DNA from: a virus
Lineage: Duplodnaviria > Caudoviricetes
DNA length: 56,130 nucleotides
Virus record (IMG/VR): IMGVR_UViG_3300037333_000141
Span: 1 to 56,130 of that record
Strand: one strand, 5' to 3'
Position numbers and translations under genes: made by a program. Shown in pieces: positions 999 to 52,499 of the stretch (the first letter of the stretch is position 1; each line of letters starts with the position of its first letter). The notes beneath the pieces were generated by a model. It was given only the letters and a program-made list of their open reading frames with translations, was not told the origin of the DNA and searched no databases.

Positions 999-1568
999 TC
1001 ATAAGTGATAAATTATATTTCTTACTTGATTTTTTTTTATTGCATTGGCTGAGAACATTATTGCTAATGTATGTGGCTTAATTTCTGAAAAATCTATCTT
1101 TAGTTTTACTCTCTCTGATGTGTCCGCAATTAGCAATCCACTTCCTATATCAAGTTTTTGAGGTTTTAGGCGTGTTTTGTTTGCTGTAATTTTATTTTGA
1201 TAACTTAAGTACTCTTCAATCAATTCATTCTCATTCTGTATATTAAAAGAATTTACTAATATCGGAGTATGCTTGTCAAATATCCCAACTATTGATGTTA
1301 CAATAATATCAATTTTTACAGTTTCTATAGACAAATAAGAAGTAAACAAGTCAAAGACTTCATATCTACTATAATCATCCTTAAATGATTTTCCTAGAGC
1401 TATAAATTTAATAGAATTAGTCTCAAGGCTTTTAGTTATCTTAATAAGACCTCCCACAAATCTATCTAGCTTTCTATGAGAAGCAATAGCTACAAACACA
1501 TAATATTCTGTAGAATTTTTCTTTATTTCCTTTTTTACTTCTGGTCTATATTGCGTAAATGATTTCAT
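999..1568 (-). CDS. Hypothetical protein
   Basis: 189-aa ORF with GAGG RBS, co-oriented downstream of terminase. Confidence 0.7.
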   Translation of the reverse strand: MKSFTQYRPEVKKEIKKNSTEYYVFVAIASHRKLDRFVGGLIKITKSLETNSIKFIALGKSFKDDYSRYEVFDLFTSYLSIETVKIDIIVTSIVGIFDKHTPILVNSFNIQNENELIEEYLSYQNKITANKTRLKPQKLDIGSGLLIADTSERVKLKIDFSEIKPHTLAIMFSANAIKKNQVRNIIYHL

Positions 1569-1580
1569 ACATACCTCTTT

Positions 1581-3320
1581 TTAAAATTCATCGTCTAAAG
1601 TTATTAATGTAGGTACATCAGCATCAATAGATATTACTTTGTTCTCATTATATTCTACAATTTCTCCATCTATTATATCTTCATCAAAATAATCTTCAAT
1701 TTCACTATTCACATTATTTATATTTTCTATTTTACTTCTAGTTTCAAAAACTTCAAATTTAACTAGCATAATTTGAGCGCAGCAGTCTGCAATATCTGGA
1801 GAGCTGAGTCCCTTTTTGCTTTTTAAATCTTGCTTGCTTAATATTTTATACTTAAAAGTATTTGTGAATGTAAAGTATATTTGTGAAAGTTCTTTCTTTA
1901 CTCTATTTTCATAATTATTAGTCTCTATTAAAAATCTATCTGATACAATATTTTCTTTAAGATTTACAAATGCTTTAGCACGAGCATTTATGAACCTTTT
2001 TTTATCTTCAAAGTATAGTTTCTCACTACCCCATTGAAGACCTTTTACAATTATATTGTATGTTTGTAATTCTAACAACATATCTTCTAATTTTACATAA
2101 GCTTCGTACCCTCCAGCAGTTGCATCACCAATAACATATACCGCATCATAATAAATTCCATCTTCTGACTTTTCATCAAGATAGGTAAGTATGTGAGTAA
2201 AAACTGTTTCTATAAAATCTATAGGTAGCTTACCATTAAATCCATCATATTTATATATCTCTTTTAATTTTGTGTGTAAAACTTCTTTGTCTGTAGCTTC
2301 ATTTATATATGTATATGCTTCTGCGATAACTAAAACGCTACTATCTCTATATCCCGTGTATCCTAAATCGTAGGAGAAAACTATTTGGTTGTACTTAATA
2401 GCACTATTTTTATTATTGTAACACTTCATAACTTCATCATTTTGTATAAGGACATCAGTATCTAACTTTGGTGGCAATCCATCTATGCGCACTCTTATCT
2501 CTTCCTCCGAATAAGTGTTAAGCATTTGTAAGAGTTGCTTATCGCTTACTCTCGAACTGTGCCTACTACTCAACCTCTTTATACACCAACTTCCGCCTTT
2601 GTCTATTGTTTTTGTAGTTACAAATTCGTGGAATTTTCCTGATAAAACAGTATGCTGAGAAAACAAAATAATAGAGTTAAATGTTTCAGTTAATGCACCA
2701 AGACCAGCTTCAATATGTTCATCTTCTATCCCACTTGCTTCGTCCATTATGAGTAGGTAATTATATTGATGTTGTCCCGATAGATTTGTGCTTGAACCTT
2801 TAGGAGCTGTACGTGCCTCTATATACCAACTTGTTTCGTTTCCTTTTACATATATCTTTGTTTTGTTTACTTGAAAAAACTTAGATAGAAAACCCCATTT
2901 TGGAGTATATCTTTTTCCTTTGATTATACGTGTTTTATTTAATCCATCTAATGCACTATTTATCTCTTTAAAAATTGATGATGTTATTTGAGATAGTGTA
3001 GGAGCTTGAAGCCTTGTAATAGAATATTCGTAGCATAATAGGTGTAGTGTTGATATTTTTCCCGTTAGATTTGACTTGCCCGTACCGTGACCACTAGGAA
3101 CTAACAACCTACCACCCTTGAACCCACCACTTTTTAAATACTCTTGCCATACTTCTATCTGTTGATATGTTAATTCCTCTCCAAATAATTCAAAACTAGC
3201 TAGTGGTAAATTCCAAGCATAGCGTTTTACAAAAAATTCTTGAAAATATTTGTCTTTCCAAACTTGCGCAAATGATGGTATTCTACTTAATCTTTGTGTG
3301 TGATATTCGTGGTTAACCAT
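1581..3320 (-). CDS. pacB: Terminase large subunit, P1 PacB-like
   Basis: Walker A SGHGTGKS, Walker B IMDEASG, nuclease YDLG...RDSS and C-terminal KKGLSSPDIAD, as in P1 PacB. Confidence 0.93.
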   Translation of the reverse strand: MVNHEYHTQRLSRIPSFAQVWKDKYFQEFFVKRYAWNLPLASFELFGEELTYQQIEVWQEYLKSGGFKGGRLLVPSGHGTGKSNLTGKISTLHLLCYEYSITRLQAPTLSQITSSIFKEINSALDGLNKTRIIKGKRYTPKWGFLSKFFQVNKTKIYVKGNETSWYIEARTAPKGSSTNLSGQHQYNYLLIMDEASGIEDEHIEAGLGALTETFNSIILFSQHTVLSGKFHEFVTTKTIDKGGSWCIKRLSSRHSSRVSDKQLLQMLNTYSEEEIRVRIDGLPPKLDTDVLIQNDEVMKCYNNKNSAIKYNQIVFSYDLGYTGYRDSSVLVIAEAYTYINEATDKEVLHTKLKEIYKYDGFNGKLPIDFIETVFTHILTYLDEKSEDGIYYDAVYVIGDATAGGYEAYVKLEDMLLELQTYNIIVKGLQWGSEKLYFEDKKRFINARAKAFVNLKENIVSDRFLIETNNYENRVKKELSQIYFTFTNTFKYKILSKQDLKSKKGLSSPDIADCCAQIMLVKFEVFETRSKIENINNVNSEIEDYFDEDIIDGEIVEYNENKVISIDADVPTLITLDDEF

Positions 3321-4152
3321 TTATAACCCTTGACTCTGTTAGTAACTCATATTGCTTTTTACTGTCTTCAAGATAGCTATCATAAAGTTTCTCTAGTTCG
3401 TCTTCTGTCATTTCAATTTCGTTCGAGCTTTCAATTTGAAGTATCATTTCATCAAGTAACTTTATTGCTACAAGTGCTTTTTCATCTGGTAAATATGATT
3501 GAGTTTTGACTGACATCATTGACTTTCCGAGTCTATTTTTATGTAATTTTTTCTCTTTTATATTTCCATTTTCATCTTCAACTATTTCGTAAGTTGCTTC
3601 CGTTTGAGTTGTAGCTATTTCTCCTTTAGCTTTGCCCATAAACAATTCGCGTAATATATATAGCTCTTTTAAATGCTCTTCTTTAGTTATTGTTCCTACA
3701 TCAGATATACTTAACATTCTATCTTTTAACGATTGCTCTTTTATTCCAAAGAATGACATAACACCTGATAATCTATCAACTGTATTATTTAAACGTGTTA
3801 CTTTTTTTTGTTCACTTGTAACATTATCTCTAATATTTGAACGCTCTTCTGTTATTGCATCAAAATCACAAAAACTTAGAATTGTTTGTATCTTAGGATA
3901 GATATACTTTTTAACTGTTGGTGTTTTTCTTCCTGAAATTTTACCTATTTGTTTAAAAGTTTCTTCTATATTCAATTCATTATATGCTATTATTATTGCT
4001 AATTGATATAGCCTAAAGTCTTTTAATGCTTGTCCTTGTAATAAACTTTTTGCTGAATAAGTTTTGATAATCTTATCTGCTTCTGTTTTTTTAACTGTAA
4101 CTCTTTTTAGATTTTTTAATATTTTTTCTTTTTCTTTTTCTGATATTCTCAT
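3313..4152 (-). CDS. Probable terminase small subunit
   Basis: Overlaps terminase large subunit start; QSYLPDEKALVAI resembles the TerS PPD..A motif; own promoter. Confidence 0.6.
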   Translation of the reverse strand: MRISEKEKEKILKNLKRVTVKKTEADKIIKTYSAKSLLQGQALKDFRLYQLAIIIAYNELNIEETFKQIGKISGRKTPTVKKYIYPKIQTILSFCDFDAITEERSNIRDNVTSEQKKVTRLNNTVDRLSGVMSFFGIKEQSLKDRMLSISDVGTITKEEHLKELYILRELFMGKAKGEIATTQTEATYEIVEDENGNIKEKKLHKNRLGKSMMSVKTQSYLPDEKALVAIKLLDEMILQIESSNEIEMTEDELEKLYDSYLEDSKKQYELLTESRVING

Positions 4153-4181
4153 TTCACAACCCTACTTTTTAATGATGTGTA

Positions 4182-4190
4182 ATTATAGCA
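4182..4190 (-). promoter_or_regulatory. Extended -10 promoter (TGCTATAAT) for terminase operon
   Basis: Exact TGnTATAAT 30 nt upstream of the ATG at 4152. Confidence 0.75.
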
Positions 4191-4240
4191 AAAAAGTAGT
4201 AGTGATGTTTTATTGTAAGAGTGAGTAAAGAGAGAATATA

Positions 4241-4276
4241 AGCACCTAAAACACAAAAAAAAGTGTTAAAAATGCT
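4241..4276 (-). terminator. 3'-terminal hairpin of the candidate ncRNA
   Basis: AGCAUUU/AGGUGCU plus AACAC/GUGUU stems followed by a pyrimidine-rich tract. Confidence 0.45.
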
Positions 4277-4601
4277 CTATTTTACCGCAGTCGTTTCGTG
4301 TCGGTCAAATCTCATATCTAAGTAGGTTTTTTTCGTGTGGGGTTATTCTGTCACATTCTGTATCATTTCAGATTACTAGTCCTAAGAGTTCGTGAATTAG
4401 TTGATACAATGGCTGAAGATTGGTTTTAGAAGTTTTCACAATAACGGTAACTAAGAACTCAATTAAGAGTGCCAAAATGGCTAAGTATTATCATACCTAT
4501 CTCATATCCGAATTACACATAAAAGTTTTTGTTTCCTTTAGGGTGTCCACTAACTTAAAAAGTCCGTGAGTAAACTTATAACTTTTTAAGAGGGAAATCG
4601 C

Positions 4602-4607
4602 TATAAT
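4602..4607 (+). promoter_or_regulatory. -10 box for an antisense RNA
   Basis: TTTTAAG-N10-cTATAAT, the same pattern as the promoter at 46658. Confidence 0.55.
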
Positions 4608-4612
4608 TTCAC

Positions 4613-4695
4613 TATATTTCAAAACAGTCGCTTGCTTCTAAACTTTTGGGCTGTTTTGGATATAAACTCTAAAGACGCTCTACTAAACATCTTAA
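4613..4695 (+). ncRNA. Candidate small antisense RNA
   Basis: Starts just after TATAAT; stem CAAAACAGUC (4620-4629)/GGCUGUUUUG (4649-4658) has G-U pairs on the + strand. Confidence 0.45.
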
Positions 4696-4703
4696 TTTTC
4701 AGA

Positions 4704-4712
4704 ATTATACCA
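4704..4712 (-). promoter_or_regulatory. Extended -10 promoter (TGGTATAAT) facing the ORF-free region
   Basis: Exact TGnTATAAT with upstream T-tract. Confidence 0.7.
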
Positions 4713-4720
4713 CAAAAAAA

Positions 4721-5516: not shown

Positions 5517-6839
5517 TTATAAACCCTTGAACGATATAAGTATGTTATCGCTAGTAATCCTAAATATAGTAGGATTAAACAGTTCTCCTAATTCGCTCAT
5601 AAGTACTGATAGCTCAAAGTATTCAAGATTATCTATTAACACTTTAAACACTTTTTTATATGCTATTTCTTTGCTTATTTTTGAATAAACATTATCATAA
5701 TAATCAATAAGAGAACTCCTAATCAAATCTTGCAAACTTTTACTATAAGACTCATCCGTAGAGATTGTTATATTTAAAACCAAATCTCTTATTTCTGACG
5801 GCTTAACAATACATTCCTTACCATAAATTCCTTTTTGTATTGTATCGACTATTTTTTTATTTACTTCGCTATCATTTGTGGTTTCATCATTAAGCAAATA
5901 GCTACAGAACACTTTGTTTATGTTAGATACATCGCTACCTACCTCTGCATTTTCTTCTCTCTCTTGCCATACTTTTAATATCTTAATACCAGATACATTC
6001 TTCTTTATAAACTGTCTATAATCTTCATTAACACATAAGTCTCCTATGTTTTTCCTTCCATACTTAACCATACTTAGCATTTCATCTAAGTTTGGCATAG
6101 ACTCATAATTTTCGCTTAGTGATATATTGTCTATTTTTAAGTCATAACCATCTTCTATTATCTGTAGTGATTTTGGAAGCTCACTATTGTCATAAGATAA
6201 GAATGTATTTATATCAAGTTTATCACCTATAGTTAGTTCCAACCCATTCTCATTATTAAGTCTAAATACAATTCTAACTATACCATCTGCAGAAACCTCT
6301 ATACTGTAGTCTGCACTATCATCTATGAAATGCTGAGAGTATTTAACTTCTGTAGAATTTTTAAATATTTCACATCTAACAAACTCTGTAAAATGTATTT
6401 TTGTATCAAAGTATGAATATAAAACACCATTGTCTATTGTTATGTTCTTTTTAAATATTTCGCTACATTCAACATCTACAGTTGTTAATGAATTTTCCTG
6501 CACTATATTATCTTTAGTGGAAATATATACATTCTTTCCATCTGTAAATCTACTATATTTTTTTATATAAGTGTACCTATTAGAGAATATGTCCACATTT
6601 ACATTAAGAGGTTTTTTAAATCTTATATATCCAACTCTATACAATAAATTAACAAGTGCATAAAAAGTGCTCGTAGGATTATATTGTTCTCTTATCTCAT
6701 TTAGTAGTATTCTCTCTGTTTCTTTTATTTTAAAATCAACTTCTTGTGAAACAAGTGCTAAACCTAAGTCTTTTTTGTAATCTTTTAAATTTTCATCTGA
6801 ACTTATTTTGTCATATAATATTTTTTCAATGCTAACCAT
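5517..6839 (-). CDS. bplA: Baseplate wedge protein, P1 BplA-like
   Basis: DLCVNEDY...KVWQEREE...NINKVF motif and position after the PmgA-like gene. Confidence 0.65.
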   Translation of the reverse strand: MVSIEKILYDKISSDENLKDYKKDLGLALVSQEVDFKIKETERILLNEIREQYNPTSTFYALVNLLYRVGYIRFKKPLNVNVDIFSNRYTYIKKYSRFTDGKNVYISTKDNIVQENSLTTVDVECSEIFKKNITIDNGVLYSYFDTKIHFTEFVRCEIFKNSTEVKYSQHFIDDSADYSIEVSADGIVRIVFRLNNENGLELTIGDKLDINTFLSYDNSELPKSLQIIEDGYDLKIDNISLSENYESMPNLDEMLSMVKYGRKNIGDLCVNEDYRQFIKKNVSGIKILKVWQEREENAEVGSDVSNINKVFCSYLLNDETTNDSEVNKKIVDTIQKGIYGKECIVKPSEIRDLVLNITISTDESYSKSLQDLIRSSLIDYYDNVYSKISKEIAYKKVFKVLIDNLEYFELSVLMSELGELFNPTIFRITSDNILISFKGL

Positions 6840-10006: not shown

Positions 10007-11539
10007 TTAAAATTCCTCTTCTTTAGGTTTTGATAAAATCATATCAATATCTATGTTTATTACGTTTTCTTTGTAATCTTCACTTATTGAAGAAATTCTA
10101 CTAAGCTTTGCATATAGTGATTTTCTTACATCAGGTGTATCAGGATAGCCTTTTTCTTTTAAGTCAGTAAGAATTGCATTATACTGAGAATCATTCATAA
10201 GTGCTTCTGCTGTTTGAGCTTCTTCCGCTTGTTGAGCGTGATTAATTACACTTCTGAAATTTACTTCTATCTGAGATAAGTCTATTTCAATATCAAATTT
10301 TGCGATAAAATGAATTTTTATAATATCAAAAACATATTCACGTATTGCACTTCTTATTTGTGTCCCTTGCGCATCCATTTGAAGCGAGTTTTGAACTACA
10401 CCATCTTTTTCACCACCGCCTATTGACATACCAGCGAAAGGAGTCATCTCAATATTAAAACCTATAGCACCAATAAATCTGCGTATGTGTATCATTATGT
10501 CTTCAATATTTTGAAAACCTTGAAAGTTAGGACTACTTTCTTGGATAGATATACCATTAGTTCCATCATTTGTTGTTGGGATTATATGATTAGCCATTAG
10601 AACACCTGGTGATTTAGTGCTTATCTTGTCTTTTATAGATGATAATGTAGATTTTATTTGGTTCTCTAACCCTTTTTTCAAAGCTTCTTTCTCGTCAGCA
10701 TTTACAGAGTTTAAAGAGTGAATAATAAATCTTTCTAGTACACTACTTGCAATACGAGTATTTGCTAAAGATTTTATAGCCCACTCGTAACCCAAAAACT
10801 CTTTGTAAACACCCTCCATTACTCCACCATAAATACCATCTTCATATATAGTTTCTTCGCTATTAAATAAATCTATGTTATTAATTGTAGCTAATTGCTC
10901 TGTTGTTACAGTTGTTATACCATTTCCAGCAGAGTTTAGTCTCCCTACAAAAATAGGTGCTACATATTGACGAGAGTTGTTATGTGTTACGAAAGAATTT
11001 TTACCCTTTAATATATCTCTTCCGCTTCCAACTTCGTATGCAACAGTTTTTCCTTGGTTAGATACTATCGGAGTTATATTAAATGGAGTTGTAGAGAAAT
11101 TTCTTAGTATTTTCGTAACACCTTTTTTGCTTTCAGAATGAATTCTGGCATAACCATCACCAAAAAATTGACTATCAAGAGTTATATCTATTAGATTTTT
11201 ACTTATTAAATCTACTAAATACTTAAATTCATTATTAATAATTTTCTTCATCTTTTTATCAATATTTGCATCTTGCTTCAATACAATATCAAACGGCTTT
11301 ATATTGTCGTGTGTAGTTCCTATAGCACGTACAATAATAACTTTAACCATCTCTCTAGTAAAAGTATCTTCGTACATTTCCTGACGCTCTAAAAGCTCAC
11401 TATCTCTGCTTATTGTTTTAAGAGATATTGAACCAGTTATAGATAAATTTCTAGGAGATGAGCCAGCGTAATAACTATTCAAAAGTTTAAGGTTTTCAAC
11501 TTCCTCTCTCAACTCTTTAAATTTGTTTTTCTTAGCCAT
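10007..11539 (-). CDS. prt: Portal protein, P1 Prt-like
   Basis: 510 aa; FGDGYARI, IEDIMIHIRRFIGAIG, GGGE.DG; adjacent to protease as in P1. Confidence 0.8.
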   Translation of the reverse strand: MAKKNKFKELREEVENLKLLNSYYAGSSPRNLSITGSISLKTISRDSELLERQEMYEDTFTREMVKVIIVRAIGTTHDNIKPFDIVLKQDANIDKKMKKIINNEFKYLVDLISKNLIDITLDSQFFGDGYARIHSESKKGVTKILRNFSTTPFNITPIVSNQGKTVAYEVGSGRDILKGKNSFVTHNNSRQYVAPIFVGRLNSAGNGITTVTTEQLATINNIDLFNSEETIYEDGIYGGVMEGVYKEFLGYEWAIKSLANTRIASSVLERFIIHSLNSVNADEKEALKKGLENQIKSTLSSIKDKISTKSPGVLMANHIIPTTNDGTNGISIQESSPNFQGFQNIEDIMIHIRRFIGAIGFNIEMTPFAGMSIGGGEKDGVVQNSLQMDAQGTQIRSAIREYVFDIIKIHFIAKFDIEIDLSQIEVNFRSVINHAQQAEEAQTAEALMNDSQYNAILTDLKEKGYPDTPDVRKSLYAKLSRISSISEDYKENVINIDIDMILSKPKEEEF

Positions 11540-17429: not shown

Positions 17430-18965
17430 TTAACCAATTTGTTTAGTAAGTGTACCTTGTACTACACCTCTTCTCATAACTCCCTCAGGAACATAAGAAT
17501 ATTGGACTACAATAGTATCACTATCTTTGTCTGAAACATCAAACTCGTACTTTTCATCAGCACTTGAACTAAAATATCCATTGCGTTCACACTTATCAAA
17601 TAGTTGACGCAAATATTCATTCGTATCCGACTTAGCACTTCCAAGGTTTTTAAATAGTTGTGAAGCAAGATAAAAAGCAATTTTTCTATCAATAAACCAT
17701 TTTCCCTCGGCAATATTAAATAATCTTGTGGACTGATTTTTAGGATTTGCACTTAATACATCAGCTATAACGAGTTTACCATTCATAATAGAAACAGTAT
17801 TTAGTCTGAACTTAACTAAATCTTCTTTTTCATCACTCGTAAGTGTTGGTAAATCTGATGATTTCATGCGTGGAAGTGCATAATCAACACCAGCTACACC
17901 CTCTACACGATATTCAACGTCATCAACAAGCTTTGATAAATTTCTTTTTACTGAATTGCCAACGATAAATCCACTAAGACCTATATCTAAACTACCAAAA
18001 TTAGTAAAAGTGTCTTTTCCTCTGTTCCATATAAACATAACACCCTCATTGTCGAAACCTAATGAGATAGCTTTACTTTTTGCAATTTCTAAAGTAGTTC
18101 CTTTTATGTCACAAACAAAAAGTACTTTAGCTTCGTAACAATCACTTCTAAAAGTTTTTAGTGTCGGTTCATCTTCAAGACCAGCAGTAAAAGCATAATC
18201 GCAAGACTCTAAATTATCTCTAACGCTAGATAGTGCATTTGCATAGTTATTGTCACCAGCATCAGCAACTAAACCATTATCGAAAGTTTCAGCTAGAGAA
18301 AAATCGCTTGTATAGTCATCATTGTTTGTGTCAACTTTTATAGTGATAATTTTATTGTCACAAATATTACCTATATAATTAGGAGTACCATTGTCATCAA
18401 CACTATCAAATTTAGCACCACCAGTAATAGAATAGACTTCATTTCCATTCTTATCTGAAACTTTAACAGTTACTAAATCGCTAACGTTAGTAATTGAAAT
18501 TGAATGCTTTTGAGATATACAACTATTTATTACTATTTCAAGCATTTCAGTTGCTGACGTTTCTTCCCAATCAACTATATTGTTATCACCAAATATATTT
18601 ACATCTGTAGAGCTATCTAATAATATCTCTCCGCTATCAGCATCTTTTTTCACTTCGATTATTTTAGTAGTACTATCAGCACCAAGTACACGACCAACTA
18701 CTACTTTACCTTTGTAGGCATTGAAATAGTCTGAGATATGATAAGCTATTTCATTATCAGCACTTCCACCAGCATTTAACAGTGTTGATTTAAGCTCTTC
18801 TGTTGCACTACCTAATATTACAGAATAATGAGGATGACCAAAAGATAGTTTACCAATAGTACAAGCTACACCAACCTCAGCAGTTGCAAGAGTTGTAGTT
18901 AAGTCTATTGTTGGGGCAATAAATATAGAAACATAATTCTTAGGCTGTGTTACATATAAACCCAT
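17430..18965 (-). CDS. Tail sheath protein
   Basis: 511 aa; E...L...RLNTV, VQYSYVPEGVMRR; follows capsid as in P1 23-22. Confidence 0.8.
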   Translation of the reverse strand: MGLYVTQPKNYVSIFIAPTIDLTTTLATAEVGVACTIGKLSFGHPHYSVILGSATEELKSTLLNAGGSADNEIAYHISDYFNAYKGKVVVGRVLGADSTTKIIEVKKDADSGEILLDSSTDVNIFGDNNIVDWEETSATEMLEIVINSCISQKHSISITNVSDLVTVKVSDKNGNEVYSITGGAKFDSVDDNGTPNYIGNICDNKIITIKVDTNNDDYTSDFSLAETFDNGLVADAGDNNYANALSSVRDNLESCDYAFTAGLEDEPTLKTFRSDCYEAKVLFVCDIKGTTLEIAKSKAISLGFDNEGVMFIWNRGKDTFTNFGSLDIGLSGFIVGNSVKRNLSKLVDDVEYRVEGVAGVDYALPRMKSSDLPTLTSDEKEDLVKFRLNTVSIMNGKLVIADVLSANPKNQSTRLFNIAEGKWFIDRKIAFYLASQLFKNLGSAKSDTNEYLRQLFDKCERNGYFSSSADEKYEFDVSDKDSDTIVVQYSYVPEGVMRRGVVQGTLTKQIG

Positions 18966-20908: not shown

Positions 20909-23900
20909 CTAACTATGCAGCAACTCTGTTTGAAGATTGTAATTTTTTTCTAAATTTTCTGTTTCCAATATTAATTCTTTTAATTTAGTATCTGAAACCA
21001 TTTTACAAATATTGTTACTTGTGTAGTTAGGAATTTGAGCTAGGTCATTTTTGTAATTAATATTATACACTCTATCAATTCCAACTATACTTAAATACTC
21101 TAATTCCGTATCAATTAGATTTATTTTAGAAACATCGTAAATTAAATTATCTTTTTCACTTCTATAACTGAATAACTTTTCATTTTCTGAAACAGCTTTG
21201 TATGTTTCTATTTTAGGCTCTGCATAGATACCATCAGGTATTGACATAATAACATCATCTTGTAATGTAGAAACTTTGAAATCTATGTTTTCAGCTTCAT
21301 CTAATTTGTATAATAATTCCTCTTCAATAACTGAATATAAAGATTTTAAATAATCTTCAATAGTCATTTTTTTAGTAGCTTTTTTTAACTCTTTTTTGAT
21401 GTGTGCTTTAACATTTTTATCTTCTATCTCATCTATATGTTTAAACAATACATTAGATTTTTTTATTTCATCATCTAGCGTTTCTTTAACGGATGTTTTT
21501 ATAGCTATCTTTATGTCTTCAAAATTTTTATATCCATCTGATAGTTTGTTACTAATAGTTGCAGGAAATGATTTTAAAGATTTGATTTTACTCTCTATGA
21601 ATTTAATAACATCTAAAGTTATTGAAGTAGAATTTTTAATATAGTTCGGAACATATTCATCTATCTTGTAATTTAAACTTGCATAAGGTATATTTAAAAT
21701 ATTAGATACATATATTCGTTCATTTTCAACCATTCTGTTTATTGTTGATTTTAGTTTCAATGCTTCTTTTAAATCATCTTTTTTATTTCCCCAAACAATT
21801 TTCTCAATTTCTCTTAGCTTTGTCTGTTCCTTTTCTTTACGTATTTTTTTATACTCATTTATCTTTCTAGCGTCATCCCAATCTGTAGCAAATTCTTTAT
21901 CTTCAAAATATCCTATAGCTTTAGTATATAGCATAGACATTTCATCAGTTTCAATTTTGACACTATCTTTGTCCCTTTTAGAAATTGTGTCAATCCAATC
22001 CGATTTACTATCTATTAAATCAATCATAAAATCATCAAAGCTACCATTCTGAATATATTTATATACATTAACTTTGTCTATATCGTTTCCTTGTCTAACA
22101 CTTCTACCCATTGCTTGTTCCCATTGGTCTGGAGTGTTTGGAATATCAAGTAAGTGTACAGCACTAACGAATTTATTGAAGTCAACACCTACTTGTGCCT
22201 TTTTATTAAAAATCATAATACCAGGGTTTTGACTATCATTAAAATCTGTTTGCTCTTTAAACCCTTTTTCATCTGATTTTATAGTTACACCATTATAAAC
22301 TGTAACTTTGCTTTTTGGAAATTCAGCATTTAATGCACTCTCTAAAATTGAGTGGTAAGCTAAGTTGTCAACATATATAACTTGTTTCGCTTTAGGGTGT
22401 CGAGTAAACTCATTTTTCATTTTTTCAATAAGTGGTTTCACTTTAGTAAAAGCATCTAAGTCGTAAATGCTATCGCTATCTATCATTTTTGCAGTTTTAA
22501 GTAGCTTAATAACCTTTGTAATAGTTTCATAGTCTTTACTTGGTAATTGAAATATATCACCATCACCGCTAGTTTGCACAAAAGTATTTAATCCATTACC
22601 TCTTGCTATTTTACTTTGTACTATTTTTGTACCATAGTTTAAAATCGGTTGCATTGCAAAAATTGGTGTTTCTTTTGTAGGAATAATATTTATTTCCTCA
22701 TCAAAAGTAATAGAGTTTAAATAGTTTAAATCATAAGACTGTTTAAGTCTGTTAAACTTCTCTATCTTTATATCTATATTCACTTTCCCTACAACTTTTA
22801 AAAGTTCATCAATAGAGTATTTTTTATTTAACATAATAGGAGTAAAACCATAAGCAAAATTTGAAGCCATTGTACTTGCATTTGCTTTAGTGAAAAAACC
22901 GAACACTTCTCCAACTTGCTTTGACATTCTATACTCTGCGGTAGTAAGGTCTATACCATCTTCACCATTCTCGCGCATTTCTTTAGCTTTGTCTTTAAAG
23001 TCTTCAAACTGTTTTCTAATATGAGAGATAGTTTGAACTAATTTAGGATTAACTGATATATCTACTCTATTTTCTGTATAGTCAGGTTTCACTTTAACAA
23101 CTTTTCCTCTCTCTAATGCTTTTAATTGTTCGTCCTCTGCATTTCTGAAAACTGTTTTATCCCACCCCAACATATCTAACTGCTTTATGTTTCTGATTCC
23201 AACCAAACGTTCTTCTGATGATAAATCACCCGTAGATGGTTTAACACTTTCTTTAGTACCAACCTCGCAAAATCTATCTATGAAATCTTGTGCAGTCATT
23301 TGTCTATTATTTGCACCGCTTAATGTCATATTTGCAAATATCTCCTGTGGACTTGAAGTTGTAGGAGTTGCTGAAACCATTACTGCACCGCTTCTACTTT
23401 TACCACCATCCCGCTTCATTCTGATATATTCTGTTACATATGCCAGTTTAACGGCTTTAGCTGACGATTTTCCTTTAACACCTTTTATATCTCCTTTCAT
23501 AGAAAATACATTTTTGTAGTTTTGTGCTTCATCAACCAATAGAAAATCAACACCTAAGTTTTCAAAGTAAAGTTTTCCATTTTTTTCATAATCTTTATGA
23601 TTATAAGCTTCTATTCCTATATCAGCAAGAGGGAACTCATATATAGTTGCAGTTTCATCACGTGTTGTTTTTTTATTATTGTAAAGATATGATGTTGTCT
23701 CAGGCTTCATTTTTAAAGCACTATCTATGAACGGATGGGCAACTATGATTATTTTAGTACTTTTATTATTCATAACATATCTGGATAGCTCTGTATAGTC
23801 TTTAAAATTAGGGAACTCTTTTTTTGTATTTGCTTTCATATCAATATTAGATACAACTACATTGTTATTAAAAAACTCTTCTTTGTAAACTGATTTAGCT

Positions 23901-32512: not shown

Positions 32513-32884
32513 TTACATTACCTCTATTATTATTTTAGTGTATGCACCATCAAGCGTTATGCTTTGTATCTCAGGACTTTTATTCACTATATCGCTTAAT
32601 GAGTACTTATTAAACATATTCCAATATACGAATACTTCACCTAAATTTATTTCAAATAACACTCTATCTTGTTTTAATGTTTTATACACTTTTGCACTAA
32701 CTATTGCTTTTACAACTTTTTTGATGTCCAGCTCTGTAGTTACAACTCTATGTGATACTTTATCGTGAATCGCAAGATTTTTATTTCTATTTATAAAAAT
32801 TTTATGTTTCTTTACATCCAATTTTTTAACATCTTTACCGAAATAAAAACTATTTTTAAACTCTTTAATCTCTCTTTTATTCAT
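32513..32884 (-). CDS. Hypothetical early protein
   Basis: 123-aa ORF immediately after a consensus promoter. Confidence 0.7.
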   Translation of the reverse strand: MNKREIKEFKNSFYFGKDVKKLDVKKHKIFINRNKNLAIHDKVSHRVVTTELDIKKVVKAIVSAKVYKTLKQDRVLFEINLGEVFVYWNMFNKYSLSDIVNKSPEIQSITLDGAYTKIIIEVM

Positions 32885-32915: not shown

Positions 32916-32944
32916 ATTATAATACGGTTTTTTTATAATGTCAA
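32916..32944 (-). promoter_or_regulatory. Perfect sigma70 promoter TTGACA-N17-TATAAT
   Basis: -35 at 32939-32944, -10 at 32916-32921. Confidence 0.85.
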
Positions 32945-37922: not shown

Positions 37923-38090
37923 TTATTTAACTTTTTTTCTTTCTCTTTTCATTTTTTCTCTTACTGCTATTACGACAAATTCTGATAATCCCTTATAAAC
38001 TGTACTATCATCAATAAACTTTTTAAATTCTTCCTTTTCACTTGGAAGCATTGAAATAGTTAGTCTCGCATCTTTTACTTCACGTGCCAT
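37923..38090 (-). CDS. Ribbon-helix-helix-like regulator, 55 aa
   Basis: Hand-translated MAREVKDARLTISMLPSEKEEFKKF...LSEFVVIAVREKM; AAGGAG RBS and TATAAT upstream. Confidence 0.6.
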   Translation of the reverse strand: MAREVKDARLTISMLPSEKEEFKKFIDDSTVYKGLSEFVVIAVREKMKRERKKVK

Positions 38091-43372: not shown

Positions 43373-43825
43373 TCATTTATAAAATTCATCTATCTCTTTT
43401 TTTATGTTCAGTTTAAAACCGAGATTTTTATTTATTTCTATGTGTTTTCTTCTACAATACTTCAAAAATTCAACTTCTTTTTTTGTTAATTTTATATCAA
43501 ATACTTTTACATTTGCACTCATTAAATCCGATACCATAAACTGAGTCCATCCACCAACTGAACGACCAAATTGTTTATGTAACTCTTTTGCTAAATGGTA
43601 AGGACGATGTGTTAGTGTATAGTAGTGATAAAAATCCTGCATATACCGCTTCTGTTTAATTTTAAACTCTTCTAGTCTTTGTATGTAATGTTCATCAACA
43701 AGCACAACACTTTGAGACTTTTCTTGTATAAATATATGAGATGGTAAAGTTCCACGCTTTTTCATTATAGAAATACTTGAACGTGATATTCCTCTTTTCT
43801 CGCATAGTTCTGCTATTGTTATCAT
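43373..43825 (-). CDS. N-terminal HTH (excisionase/AlpA-like) protein
   Basis: MITIAELCEKRGISRSSI...KRGTLP. Confidence 0.6.
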   Translation of the reverse strand: MITIAELCEKRGISRSSISIMKKRGTLPSHIFIQEKSQSVVLVDEHYIQRLEEFKIKQKRYMQDFYHYYTLTHRPYHLAKELHKQFGRSVGGWTQFMVSDLMSANVKVFDIKLTKKEVEFLKYCRRKHIEINKNLGFKLNIKKEIDEFYK

Positions 43826-44244: not shown

Positions 44245-44790
44245 CTATCTCCTATTTATTCTAAGTTTATCAGTAACACCACCGAGTGCATTTTGTCCAC
44301 CAAACTTTAAAGCACTCATAAACGCATCTAATTGCACTTTTGAGTCTTGGTAATGGTTTATCTCACTAATGAGTCTCTTTGCATCTCTGTATGGTGCTAC
44401 TGCGTTAAATACTGATATATCCTCTTGGCTTATAGATTGGCTGAGTATTATTTTGTTTATTAACTCACTAAACTGTATTTTCATTCGTTGTGAGTCTTCA
44501 AAGATTTTGCTATTTAGTGCTTCGGCTAAAGCTATTAATCTTTTGGCTTCTACTTCAATGTGATTTACTTCTACTGCAGATGGTTTAAATTGCTCTGCTA
44601 CTTTCGCTATTCTGTCCATTCCATTTAGGTATTGGTGTTGTGTTCCAAATAGTGATGTCATAAAGTTTTTATAGTCTAGCGGTTTAATTTCTTTCGTGAA
44701 CTCTTGAACAGTGGCTACGATAAAAGGAGACTGTTCTATTTTTAGTGAAATCATTATGCTACGTATAAATTCTTCTCTCATTTTATCCAT
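44245..44790 (-). CDS. Hypothetical protein, positional helicase-loader candidate
   Basis: Overlaps the end of the replication initiator. Confidence 0.45.
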   Translation of the reverse strand: MDKMREEFIRSIMISLKIEQSPFIVATVQEFTKEIKPLDYKNFMTSLFGTQHQYLNGMDRIAKVAEQFKPSAVEVNHIEVEAKRLIALAEALNSKIFEDSQRMKIQFSELINKIILSQSISQEDISVFNAVAPYRDAKRLISEINHYQDSKVQLDAFMSALKFGGQNALGGVTDKLRINRR

Positions 44791-45613
44791 TTAGTAATCC
44801 TACTTGCTCTTGGTTTTCGCGTTCTTCCATTGCATCAATTACATCAAACACATTCATTCCAAAATTAGAAGTTTGTGAAATTACATCAACTTGTTGTGGT
44901 GTTATCTCGTCTTCCCATCTTCTACCATTCAACCAAGTGCTAGGGTGTGGTATATACTTACCTCTCTCTTTCATCCAATCCTCTGTCTGCTTAAATGTTT
45001 CAAGTGTTCCGATAAGCTCATTCGTCTGAGGAAGTTCTTTATAAATCTTAATAAAAATCTTCTTTGCATTTTGTTTAGCTTTTTTTATAGGGTAGTGACT
45101 CCAAAACAATTCAAAGTCTTGTTCTGCATTTGAGACTATCTCTACATTTTGTTTTGTTTGTTTATTTTCTTTAAAAGTATCATTAGTACTAGTATTAGAA
45201 TTAGTATTATTATATGTCGGATTTATTTCCGAGTTTTTTTCGGATTTATTTCCGAGTTTGCTCGGATTTATTTCCGAGTTATCATCACTTTCGGATTTAT
45301 TTCCGACATAGTAACTTCTACCTTTTTTTGTTAGTTTCACTAGGTCTTTTTTGCCTTGTTTTATATAGTCAATCAAGCCTAGCTCTACTAAGCTTTTAAG
45401 GTGTCTGTATGCAGTATCAGGCTTAATATTTAGTAATGGTATCTCTTCTATAATCTTTGTTCGTGAGACCCAATAAAACACTTCTGAATTATCTATAATA
45501 GGTTCTGCCCAGCTAGAAGCTTCTCCAATAAGATGTAAAATTAATACTTGATTAACATTTTTAATCCCTAATTCTATTGCTTGTTTTTGATTTATTTGTA
45601 GTGTGTATCTCAC
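44783..45613 (-). CDS. Phage replication initiator (lambda O-like)
   Basis: wHTH (TAYRHLKSLVELGLI), internal iterons, C-terminal FELFWSHYP.K..K..A...IPHPSTWLNGRRWEDE. Confidence 0.88.
   Translation of the reverse strand: MRYTLQINQKQAIELGIKNVNQVLILHLIGEASSWAEPIIDNSEVFYWVSRTKIIEEIPLLNIKPDTAYRHLKSLVELGLIDYIKQGKKDLVKLTKKGRSYYVGNKSESDDNSEINPSKLGNKSEKNSEINPTYNNTNSNTSTNDTFKENKQTKQNVEIVSNAEQDFELFWSHYPIKKAKQNAKKIFIKIYKELPQTNELIGTLETFKQTEDWMKERGKYIPHPSTWLNGRRWEDEITPQQVDVISQTSNFGMNVFDVIDAMEERENQEQVGLLNG
45217..45306. repeat. Four 16-bp iterons TCGGATTTATTTCCGA (probable origin)
   Basis: Exact copies at 45217, 45240, 45262, 45291, adjacent to an AT-rich tract. Confidence 0.88.
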
Positions 45614-45969
45614 ATCATAACCTTTAGATTGTATGCAGGGTATATAGGCTCTATCGTTTCAGATGCCCATTCTGACTCTAAACCTACAACGATTTCAGTA
45701 GGTAGCTTTTCTTTATGTTTTAGTAACTCATTAACAATACAATATTCTATATATTCTACATCGCCGTGTTGTTGAGCAATATCAGTAAGAATCGATAGTT
45801 TTAGCTTATCTATATCAATAATCTTTATAAGTACATCATTAGTTACCATAAGTTCTTTTGCATAAGTTTCTAACTCTTGTTTTTTCCATTGAGAAAAAGA
45901 TACATCGTTCAGCAAAGAGCTTAATATTTCACTTGTTTTTTTTAGGGTGATTACCGCATTTATTTGCAT
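45610..45969 (-). CDS. Hypothetical protein heading the replication operon (start reassigned to 45969)
   Basis: AAAGGA RBS before MQINAV. Confidence 0.6.
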   Translation of the reverse strand: MQINAVITLKKTSEILSSLLNDVSFSQWKKQELETYAKELMVTNDVLIKIIDIDKLKLSILTDIAQQHGDVEYIEYCIVNELLKHKEKLPTEIVVGLESEWASETIEPIYPAYNLKVMM

Positions 45970-46019
45970 ATTTGTTCCTTTTGCATTTAACAATAATAAA
46001 TTTTAAGAGTGGGGAGAAT

Positions 46020-46113
46020 GCGCAACCAACTGCCCGTTTATCTCTTATATCAATTCAATCGGTAAAGAGTGCCAAGTGACACCCTAAACAGTCAGTTGCG
46101 CTGATATAAAAGA
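46020..46113 (-). ncRNA. Structured leader (two long interleaved helices plus hairpin) of replication operon
   Basis: 46102-13/46041-52 (12 bp), 46089-101/46020-32 (13 bp), 46077-85/46066-74. Confidence 0.55.
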
Positions 46114-46133
46114 TTTGCTCTTTTTACGTGAGT

Positions 46134-46139
46134 ATTATA
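46134..46139 (-). promoter_or_regulatory. -10 box for replication operon
   Basis: TTAAGtttt...gggTATAAT. Confidence 0.65.
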
Positions 46140-46161
46140 CCCACATAAAACTTAATAACTT

Positions 46162-46323
46162 CTACACCATATCAGCAATAGTTAAATTGCGAATAAACTC
46201 TAATCCGTCTTCAAACTTAGATAAAGGAAGAGCAGAATATCTAGTAAGGTAAAACTTTTTGTAGAAGACTGACCATACTTTTCTATGAAGATTTAAAATA
46301 AGGGCTTTATCATCATTCCCCAC
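46162..46323 (-). pseudogene. Isolated ORF6C-like antirepressor C-terminal domain
   Basis: LHRKVWSVFYKKFYLTRYSALPLSKFEDGLEFIRNL; only a GTG start, stop a few codons upstream. Confidence 0.55.
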
Positions 46324-46374
46324 ACTTTGTGCATATCTTCATATTGCAATCCATTGACCGAAAATTAAGTAAAT

Positions 46375-46565
46375 CTGATTATTGAGGGTCGAAGTCCATA
46401 ATCAGCTTATGTTAATAAGTTTATTCACTCTAGCCAAAGCCCTTACAAAGGTGTAACGGCTAAAGCTCCTAGAACTTCGACCCTCTGGCTAGAATAAACA
46501 TTCAAGAAAGAACAGTAGACGAGGTGCTTGAGAAACCTTTTGTTCTGTTCTTTACTAAACATTTA
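46375..46565 (-). ncRNA. Structured leader/antisense-type RNA (C4/CI-like architecture)
   Basis: 12-bp complement 46474-85/46384-95; stems 46486-99/46419-36, 46375-82/46398-405, 46507-15/46545-53. Confidence 0.55.
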
Positions 46566-46590
46566 ACTCTTTAAATAAAGATATACCGAA

Positions 46591-46599
46591 ATTATACCA
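46591..46599 (-). promoter_or_regulatory. Extended -10 promoter (TGGTATAAT), leftward early
   Basis: Exact motif; divergent from promoter at 46658. Confidence 0.7.
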
Positions 46600-46657
46600 A
46601 AAAAACATTAAACAAAACTTTGTGATGTTTACAAGAACTTTTTAAGATTACTAAAGC

Positions 46658-46663
46658 TATAAT
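46658..46663 (+). promoter_or_regulatory. -10 box, rightward early operon
   Basis: TTTAAG...gcTATAAT 27 nt before the ATG at 46690. Confidence 0.65.
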
Positions 46664-46689
46664 TATACATATCAAAAAAAGGTTTAAGA

Positions 46690-49284: not shown

Positions 49285-49659
49285 ATGAGTAAAATACAAT
49301 TCATATTAACCAATATAAAACCTACCCCACTGAATAAATTACATATTCCAATCATAAGGAATGGAAAGCCGACAAAAATACTATCTAGTGAGGCAAGACA
49401 ACAAAAAAAACTTATTCAAATGGAAGCTATAAGACAAAATAAAACTGATGTCTTACAAGGACATATCACTTTCTATATGGATATATTAGTTAAAAAAATA
49501 AAGTCGCCTGACATAGACGCTCTTTTAAAACAGTTGTTAGATGCTTTTGAGGGAATTTATTACAAAAACGACAAGCAAATAGTTGATTTAAGAGTGCGCA
49601 AGCACTTTAACAGTGGTAAAGATGAGATAGTAATAGAGATTAAAGAAATTTCTATTTAA
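49285..49659 (+). CDS. rusA: RusA Holliday junction resolvase
   Basis: PDIDALLKQLLDAFEGIYYKNDKQIV. Confidence 0.88.
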   Translation: MSKIQFILTNIKPTPLNKLHIPIIRNGKPTKILSSEARQQKKLIQMEAIRQNKTDVLQGHITFYMDILVKKIKSPDIDALLKQLLDAFEGIYYKNDKQIVDLRVRKHFNSGKDEIVIEIKEISI

Positions 49660-50218
49660 AGCTATCTATCTTTGCTTTTAGTGCTTGAAGTGCTGAAATT
49701 GTAGATGGGTCAAGTGTTGCTGGTACTCCTAAGTTTCCTATAACTATTAAATCTGTAACTGCTTGTATAGTGTCGCTTAGTGTTGATGTATATTCAGCCG
49801 TACTATTTTTTACATTGAATTGAGTAGTATTTAAAATAGTTTTGTCTGCATTATTTAAAGTTAATGATTTTGTGTTTATTACACTCTCTTCTATATCACC
49901 ATCTATTCCACTAATCAAAAGTTTTTTATCTGTTAATATTTGCACTTCATCACTGTTCTCTAATTTATAGATTTTCTTTGTTTCTTTATCTGTCCCTTGC
50001 TGAGTGCTACCCAAAATAAAGCACTCGCTATCGTTTTGAATAGCTACTAAAACTTCTGTTCCAACTTTTACGTTTGGTTTTTGCTCTCTACTATCTAATA
50101 TAATAGGATTTATAAAAACTGCTTTGACTATTTGATTGCTTGGAATTAATTTTACAGTTATATATCTACTACTTGTTTCGTTTGGATTATCCTGTGTTAT
50201 TCCGCTTATTATTATCAT
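49652..50218 (-). CDS. Baseplate central spike (gpV/gp5-like)
   Basis: OB-fold P.VG..VLV.....F.LG; beta-rich C-terminus. Confidence 0.65.
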   Translation of the reverse strand: MIIISGITQDNPNETSSRYITVKLIPSNQIVKAVFINPIILDSREQKPNVKVGTEVLVAIQNDSECFILGSTQQGTDKETKKIYKLENSDEVQILTDKKLLISGIDGDIEESVINTKSLTLNNADKTILNTTQFNVKNSTAEYTSTLSDTIQAVTDLIVIGNLGVPATLDPSTISALQALKAKIDSFK

Positions 50219-52097: not shown

Positions 52098-52499
52098 TTA
52101 TTTTCTTTCATTGAAAACAATATCCGCAAGTCTTTTCGCTCTATTTGGAGTTTGTTTTGCCCATCTACTATCTAACATCTCTGCACTAGCTTTTTTGTAA
52201 TCAGCACTTTTTAATGCACTCCACATCTTTTTAAACTTTAACAATCCAGACACGCCAAGTTGATAAGCCATTTCATATAAAACTTCTTGTATCTTCACTG
52301 GAAGATATTCAACAAATGGATAATGTGTAATTAAATCTTTAATCTTCTTATCTAATCTATGCTCTAATATTAGTTGTGCTTCATCTTTGCTCAAAGGTAA
52401 TTTAGTACCAAATCCTATGGTAGGATAGCCTAAAGAGTCGTCATAAACATCACTTGAAAACCCCTCACTCTCTTTTATTCTTTCGACTAAATTTTTCAC
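52098..52499 (-). CDS. Endolysin, GH24 (T4-like) lysozyme
   Basis: EGF...YDDSLGYPTIGFG...DSRWAKQTPNRAKR. Confidence 0.92.
   Translation of the reverse strand: MKNLVERIKESEGFSSDVYDDSLGYPTIGFGTKLPLSKDEAQLILEHRLDKKIKDLITHYPFVEYLPVKIQEVLYEMAYQLGVSGLLKFKKMWSALKSADYKKASAEMLDSRWAKQTPNRAKRLADIVFNERK

Follow-up and report, generated by a model that had tools for sequence, protein, structure and literature searches.

Short repeats shared by two distant promoter-leader regions of a vent phage, and a candidate cis-regulatory RNA heading its replication leader

Described two-region systems and the phage analysed here

The leader signals nutL/nutR of phage lambda (boxA plus boxB) and putL/putR of HK022 carry identical words because one factor reads both members of a pair. 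Two regions of one phage can also hold operator sets of phage repressors, as in the OL/OR type of lambda, and the c4 antisense RNA of P1 and P7, whose family (C4) is represented in Rfam, acts via two short complementary boxes.

Here we describe two regions of a phage genome that resemble each of these systems in part. The window, i.e., the whole stretch of DNA that was analysed, is an IMG/VR record of a whole virus of 56,130 bp that is classed as linear, with an estimated completeness of 93% and a GC content of 30%. It is a myovirus-like phage, and the minus strand carries nearly all of its genes (Table 1). The named relatives of its replication initiator come from Sulfurimonas and Halarcobacter, a hydrothermal vent metagenome is the only sequencing run with DNA of this phage, and a structured leader element described below has a homologue in a genome from the family of a Sulfurimonas MAG, from which we infer that the host is probably a Sulfurimonas-type member of Campylobacterota. 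Among sequencing runs, none of RNA is listed for this phage. Terms for regulatory or non-coding elements were absent in a term search of the Sulfurimonas phage survey PMC11531552, whose supplements could hold more.

The loci in question sit in the two longest non-coding stretches of the genome, region A (4153-4720, 568 nt) and region B (45994-46689), neither of which holds an ORF of at least 60 aa on either strand; they are also the two longest promoter-leader regions of the phage. Like nut and put sites, they are two distant leaders, each downstream of a similar early-type promoter, with the same short strand-specific words and one copy in a small hairpin. However, the phage motif is unlike the rrn leader box of the likely host family, the hairpin is present in region B only, and no N-like protein was found. 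As in OL/OR, one word recurs several times across a pair of promoter regions and also forms a dyad, here with a spacer of 4 bp, but the dyad is single and its mismatches favour an RNA hairpin, the copies of region A all have the same orientation and stand 74 and 248 bp apart, and no repressor gene was found adjoining A or B. The c4 RNA is the nearest precedent for the trans-acting circuit proposed in a sequence-only reading of this DNA, since it is a phage RNA that acts on a leader via two short boxes, whereas here one box is complementary and the other identical to the supposed target, Rfam holds no match, and the hybridisation energy is unexceptional. Finally, as in Rep-iteron plasmids or lambda-like origins inside a gene, the initiator gene (44783-45613) holds four iterons in its own coding sequence, although the iteron TCGGAAATAAATCCGA is unlike AGRGTGYC.

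Table 1. Positions of features in the window and of the structured element in homologous loci (empty cells, nothing given)
Feature	Position	Strand	Details
Motif copy a1	4537-4547	-	RNA GACACCCUAAA; exact complement of leader 5' arm
Motif copy a2	4465-4475	-	RNA UUGGCACUCUU; identical to leader 3' arm
Motif copy a3	4216-4223	-	TAAGAGTG on plus strand; 28 nt upstream of TGCTATAAT promoter of ORF 3313-4152
Motif copy b3	46004-46011	-	TAAGAGTG on plus strand; 35 nt upstream of start codon of 119-aa ORF
Motif copy b4	45941-45949	-	RNA CACCCUAAA; codons 7-9 of 119-aa ORF
Third exact 11-mer copy	22391-22401	-	Within DarB-like ORF
Leader hairpin, inverted motif pair	46065-46088	-	AGGGUGUC-ACUU-GGCACUCU; 8 pairs, two G-U on minus-strand RNA
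Predicted long stem around hairpin in short leader	46018-46101	-	GCGCAACUGACUG / CAGUUGGUUGCGC; MFE -38, z -2.25, 4 of 200 shuffles as good
Extended -10 promoter, head of region A	4704-4712	-	TGGTATAAT
Extended -10 promoter, head of region B	46591-46599	-	TGGTATAAT; same word as A
Extended -10 promoter directly upstream of ORF 3313-4152	4182-4190	-	TGCTATAAT
P2, second promoter-like site	46134-46139	-	TATAAT; 46 nt upstream of leader hairpin; putative, found by reading and absent from promoter scan list
First leader hairpin, region A	4621-4657	-	AAAACAG...CUGUUUU; resembles that of region B
First leader hairpin, region B	46506-46553	-	AAAGAACAG...CUGUUCUUU
Conserved structured leader element, ~140 nt	46356-46498	-	Homologues L034, L050-L054
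Element homologue, L034	about 1514-1617		Operon with replisome organizer
Element homologue, L050	7391-7492		Operon with replication initiation protein
Element homologue, L051	3036-3140		
Element homologue, L052	7703-7808		Operon with primase/helicase
Element homologue, L053	2871-2974		Operon with DnaB-type helicase
Element homologue, L054	6285-6388		Operon with DnaB-type helicase
Baseplate	5517-6839		PHROGs
Portal	10007-11539		PHROGs
Tail sheath	17430-18965		PHROGs
DarB-like methyltransferase, 1844 aa	20909-26443		PHROGs
Replication initiator	44783-45613		PHROGs
RecT, exonuclease, SSB			PHROGs

Repeated words and common modules of regions A and B

On the plus strand, AAGAGTGCCAA stands at 4465-4475 and again at 46065-46075, and TTTAGGGTGTC at 4537-4547, with its reverse complement at 46078-46088. 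These positions agree with what the sequence-only reading had reported, i.e., that the RNA of 4537-4547 is the exact complement of one arm of a leader hairpin and that 4465-4475 is identical to the other arm. Its remark that a repeated word of region A resembles one of the leader holds as well: the window has exactly two copies of GATATGAGAT, each of them within region A (4309-4318 and 4499-4508, 190 nt apart), and a 12-mer version with two extra bases is present in the replication leader at 46040-46051. That reading had missed a third exact plus-strand copy of TTTAGGGTGTC within the DarB-like ORF, which we take as a chance copy.

Both 11-mers are the best-preserved copies of a genuine short repeat, whose sequence is TWAGRGTG on the plus strand and CACYCUWA on the minus strand, which is the transcribed one. 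Three copies lie in region A and four in or just after the replication leader of region B (45941-46088). Six of the seven are on one strand, and the inverted one, in region B, thereby creates the leader hairpin; the spacing of the copies to promoter-like sites differs between A and B. The core AGRGTG occurs 13 times on the plus strand of the window, and six of these occurrences fall in A and B, i.e., in 2.4% of the window, compared with a mean of 0.34 in dinucleotide shuffles of both regions, none of which reached six in 2000 trials. The motif was defined after the matches had been seen; the three plus-strand copies outside the original finding (4218, 45944, and 46006) exceed 0.34 all the same, with a Poisson arithmetic of ca. 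0.005. In its longer form TWAGRGTG, the motif occurs 12 times in the window (6.4 expected), again with six occurrences in A and B. The suggestion of shared half-sites AGRGTGYC in the earlier reading thus holds up in a broader version, as a core strongly concentrated in A and B. As for a binding protein, searches with Pfam and PHROGs revealed no clear HTH or RHH candidate next to A or B. The only regulator hint is a sub-threshold CI-type HTH in ORF 43373-43825 (E 0.0067). Elsewhere in the genome, a 55-aa ORF below the cut-off of the ORF list (37923-38090, minus strand) looks like a ribbon-helix-helix DNA-binding protein, with no match in Pfam.

How far the matches exceed chance depends on the comparison. 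Regions A and B have five 11-mers in common where 0.75 are expected (P 0.0145), and two at GC >= 5 (P 0.0055). When the 20 non-coding stretches of the genome (4291 nt) were shuffled 1000 times, a pair of matches like the observed one arose three times at GC >= 4, never at GC >= 5, and 276 times if GC content was disregarded; the GC cut-off was itself picked after the fact. Across the whole window, there is a single case in which two matching 11-mers of GC >= 5 lie no more than 100 nt apart at each of two loci, for which dinucleotide shuffles gave a mean of 0.08 and a P(>=1) of 0.06 (6 of 100). This null is too lenient and the true expectation higher, because the real window has 2.4 times as many such 11-mer matches as its shuffles (189 compared with 78); seven GC >= 5 11-mers occur three or more times in it. 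The earlier claim that two such matches are unlikely by chance is thus borne out among non-coding sequences with a post hoc cut-off and is weaker window-wide. Taken together, the 11-mer words exceed chance as a DNA motif and not as hybridisation energy. In another part of the window, three separate 11-mers are common to the tail sheath gene (18306-18405) and the 188-aa ORF 49652-50218 (49721-49788), possibly as a shared protein segment.

The likeness of the two regions extends beyond the motif. Each opens with the same extended -10 promoter TTTTTnTGGTATAATT, directly after the preceding stop codon or divergent promoter, and TGxTATAAT is given as the sigma-70 consensus of Epsilonproteobacteria in PMC3656092. 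Next after the promoter come ATGTTTAGTA and a similar first hairpin in both regions, followed by further common blocks, i.e., TTAGAGTTTAT, a TATAAT-type second promoter, TTGGCACTCTT, GATAT(AA)GAGAT, and CxCACTCTTAxAAT; across the whole window, each of TGGTATAATT, ATGTTTAGTA, and TTAGAGTTTAT is found only in A and B. The regions have 14 10-mers in common (2.7 expected, P 0.0005), and their colinear chain scores 87.6 compared with 63.0 +/- 7.3 in shuffles, none of which reached this value in 200 trials. Taken singly, the local alignments between the two regions are weak, the best one having a score with P 0.055, and we therefore limit the claim to shared modules: A and B appear to have modules in common rather than to be a clean duplication. 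Coupling of replication and packaging, as suggested in the sequence-only reading, has no basis, because the genes that follow A, among them those for 279 and 579 aa, lack a packaging signature and any known function in PHROGs or Pfam.

Three further observations concern promoters and the surroundings of these modules. A 45-nt part of region A (4580-4624, plus strand) resembles 46636-46678 (plus strand), which contains a plus-strand TATAAT ahead of ORF 46690; this alignment is not significant alone (P 0.055). A promoter at this place in A would point head-on at the TGGTATAAT promoter. The phage also has full consensus promoters beside the extended -10 type, as shown by a perfect TTGACA-17-TATAAT at 32916-32944 (minus strand), in a 475-nt stretch ahead of ORF 32513-32884.

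The hairpin formed by the inverted copy folds with -11.8 kcal/mol on the minus strand and -2.9 kcal/mol on the plus strand, because both of its non-Watson-Crick positions are G-U pairs on the transcribed strand. This folding prediction bears out the hairpin as a true feature of the leader RNA. Region A has no equivalent of it, and of the dyad there is one in B and none in A.

Readings of the shared words

We favour a reading, held to be about equally likely right or wrong, in which the repeats serve as shared cis-regulatory sites of two promoter-leader regions under joint control. It starts from what is directly observed, i.e., the repeats, their concentration, their strand bias, and the shared promoter and leader modules, and from these we infer the binding of a factor and the co-regulation. 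Regions A and B are assembled from common modules (an extended -10 promoter of host type, the same opening bases of the leader, and first hairpins that resemble each other); one factor would read the repeats on DNA or on nascent RNA, and the two transcription units would then be switched together, as with nutL/nutR or OL/OR of lambda. The identity of the words would stem from a common recognition sequence and not from pairing of RNA with RNA. Regarding the molecule that is read, the strand bias of the motif and the G-U pattern lean towards RNA and the dyad with its 4-bp spacer towards DNA.

Among known signals, the nut type comes close in position, with the motif copies downstream of the extended -10 promoters at 4704-4712 and 46591-46599, and a boxB-like hairpin was found next to the box at 46065-46088 only and not in both regions. 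The motif also resembles boxA, but the rrn leaders of two Sulfurimonadaceae-family genomes, which we take to represent the host family, carry another box, GAGATCATTGAAAACTAAG, after a small hairpin, and we keep nut membership as an analogy. A word like GAGATCATTGAAAACTAAG occurs once in the window, at 52108, and not in A or B. Other candidates were rejected as well: for a CIRCE/HrcA operator, one arm resembles the CIRCE half-site, but the arrangement of the arms is reversed and the second half-site at the expected spacing is missing; for a sigma-54 promoter, TTGGCAC is present with neither copy having the second element at the right spacing; and for small plus-strand ORFs or ribosome-binding sites, a start codon stands at a suitable distance from one copy only. 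Rfam gave no matches at the gathering threshold in the window and only noise at E up to 10 in A and B.

Binding of the initiator to iterons was likewise rejected as the role of the motif. The four iterons TCGGAAATAAATCCGA (45217-45300, period about 22) are followed by an AT-rich stretch inside ORF 44783-45613 and are unlike the motif, so that the initiator is not an obvious reader of it. In relatives whose initiator proteins are only 35-51% identical, the iteron stretch retains 74-83% nucleotide identity, and 45217-45300 is likely to be an origin of replication inside the initiator gene.

The strongest competitor of shared regulatory sites, though one that we consider rather unlikely, is a relic without function, i.e., regions A and B deriving partly from one duplicated or recombined promoter-leader segment, with the reverse-complement match and the coding copy as products of chance. 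The common blocks of A and B are indeed colinear, the third copy lies in a coding region of a window in which seven GC >= 5 11-mers are present three times or more, and the window-wide P is only 0.06 under the lenient null. Conservation in relatives is likewise missing. Relatives of region A or B were found neither in phage GenBank or IMG/VR nor in 301 genomes of the family, and scans of metagenome and GTDB contigs by means of the initiator protein led to none; the 279-aa, baseplate, and sheath proteins yielded 0 loci in IMG/VR and 0 in phage GenBank. Searches with the initiator protein returned 6, 5, and 3 distant loci, none of which (0 of 14) has the dyad or any likeness to A or B. The dyad pattern is present in at least 10 IMG/VR contigs, all unrelated to the window among the matches listed, and a 16-mer scan added at least three further, unrelated contigs. 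In the 301 family genomes, region A gave two matches of ~40 nt that we take as noise, and region B gave one convincing match (G014) that covers the structured element only, with the other 22 matches listed being short. The motif is also absent from the six loci that carry this structured element and therefore has no evolutionary support. However, drift after a duplication leaves unexplained why each region has three extra hexamer copies, why an inverted copy makes a hairpin specific to the RNA strand, and why exact 11-mers persist amid sequence that no longer aligns.

Distinctly less probable is an RNA switch that acts in cis in the replication leader only, with the copies of region A unrelated to it. 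Its single AGGGUG arm would have two alternative partners, the adjacent CACUCU, which gives the hairpin, and CACCCUAAA within the 119-aa ORF (codons 7-9), and the change of partner would alter translation or stability. Copy b4 indeed offers nine Watson-Crick pairs in cis with the 5' arm of the leader, a long stem is predicted around the hairpin (z -2.25), and the G-U pattern is specific to the RNA strand. Neither pairing involves the ribosome-binding site, though, comparative support is lacking, and the concentration of the motif in region A stays unexplained.

The trans-acting circuit of the sequence-only reading would have the RNA of region A pair via GACACCCUAAA with the 5' arm of the replication-leader hairpin and open it, with the second site mimicking the 3' arm. 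In its favour is the exact 11-bp Watson-Crick complement, whose duplex of -20.4 kcal/mol with context stays favourable, if only marginally, at a net of ca. -6.3 kcal/mol after opening costs of 9.3 (leader) and 4.8 (region A). Moreover, both partners are on the strand expected to be transcribed and downstream of promoter-like sites, the hairpin is specific to the RNA strand, and paired matches are rare in non-coding shuffles. The second site is unfavourable, with a duplex of -12.8 and opening costs of 8.8 and 9.3 (net ca. +5.3 kcal/mol), and since these costs exceed the duplex energy, the site that is identical to the 3' arm cannot compete. Full-length duplexes of region A and the leader are meaningless (-55.6 compared with a shuffle mean of -56.0) and were replaced by short-window scans. 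Among 11200 minus-strand windows of 25 nt scanned against the 36-nt hairpin region, the A site ranks fourth (-22.1) behind three coding windows. Each of six Markov-1 simulated genomes also contains a window that equals or undercuts this value (minima -22.2 to -27.6), so that the complementarity of the A site is not stronger than the transcriptome background. This is the kind of composition-matched control that the earlier reading had itself named, and its outcome speaks against the circuit. The same 11-mer core is also present in the mRNA of the DarB-like protein, where opening costs about as much (4.07), the leader is matched in cis by a 9-bp complement at 45941-45949, and Rfam holds no family match, phage antisense families included. 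On this evidence, pairing between the two RNAs over a distance of 41 kb is not supported, and we regard this circuit as very improbable.

Just as slim are the chances of a decoy, in which the three CACYCU copies of a long non-coding RNA from region A would compete with those of the leader for the single AGGGUG arm and thus set the fold of the leader in trans. If this model were true, the amount of region A RNA would set the fold of the replication leader and hence the expression of replication genes, and the phage would couple two transcription units by shared RNA words, alongside a new riboswitch-like element heading the same leader.

A conserved structured element at the head of the replication leader

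The minus strand of region B folds far better than its shuffles (z -3.3) and contains an element of ~140 nt (46356-46498) with relatives outside the window. It matches a Sulfurimonadaceae-family genome with 79% identity over 143 nt (E 8.6e-25), the one convincing match in 301 genomes, and is also present in at least five IMG/VR contigs at 78-82% identity, two of which are identical over the region. In 401 genomes of the class, the best match spans 31 nt (E 2.2e-5) and was taken as noise, and a match in Rfam was not found. The six homologous loci amount to five distinct relatives, as L053 and L054 are identical over the region.

In every locus, a promoter-like TATAAT box precedes the element and the first gene of an operon follows it; the box is an exact extended -10 in at least L050 and L053/L054. 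The operons of four of the five distinct relatives contain replication genes, which belong to different families, and in L051 the first gene after the element encodes an HNH endonuclease with a Cys-rich start. Downstream of the element, the window has two short frames that part at a GGGG run (46345-46162), and beyond them the second promoter, P2, and the hairpin leader. None of the relatives of the element has the motif, so that the hairpin part is specific to this phage. The two frames, a 9-codon one (MKICTKCGE) and a 53-aa one offset by one base (46162-46345, minus strand), take the position that the HNH endonuclease has in L051 and may reflect a small gene that is split, one that has decayed, or an error of sequencing.

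Base-pairing of the element is retained across its relatives: in an alignment of six distinct sequences, 94% of cells pair, and seven pairs are changed on both sides compared with 2.4 +/- 1.1 in shuffles (0 of 500 reached seven) and 0 to 2 in slid controls. Alternative folds are likely because P1, an invariant 14-bp helix, crosses two other conserved helices of the element. We therefore present the element as a candidate new cis-regulatory RNA that may control phage replication.

If the reading of the repeats as shared regulatory sites is right, an uncultured vent phage would co-regulate two transcription units by one family of short sites, which is ordinary phage logic in a clade whose phages are known from sequence only. 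The structured element has more reach than the motif, as a covarying leader RNA that stands ahead of replication modules whose genes are not orthologous, in several phages and prophages of the Campylobacterota type.
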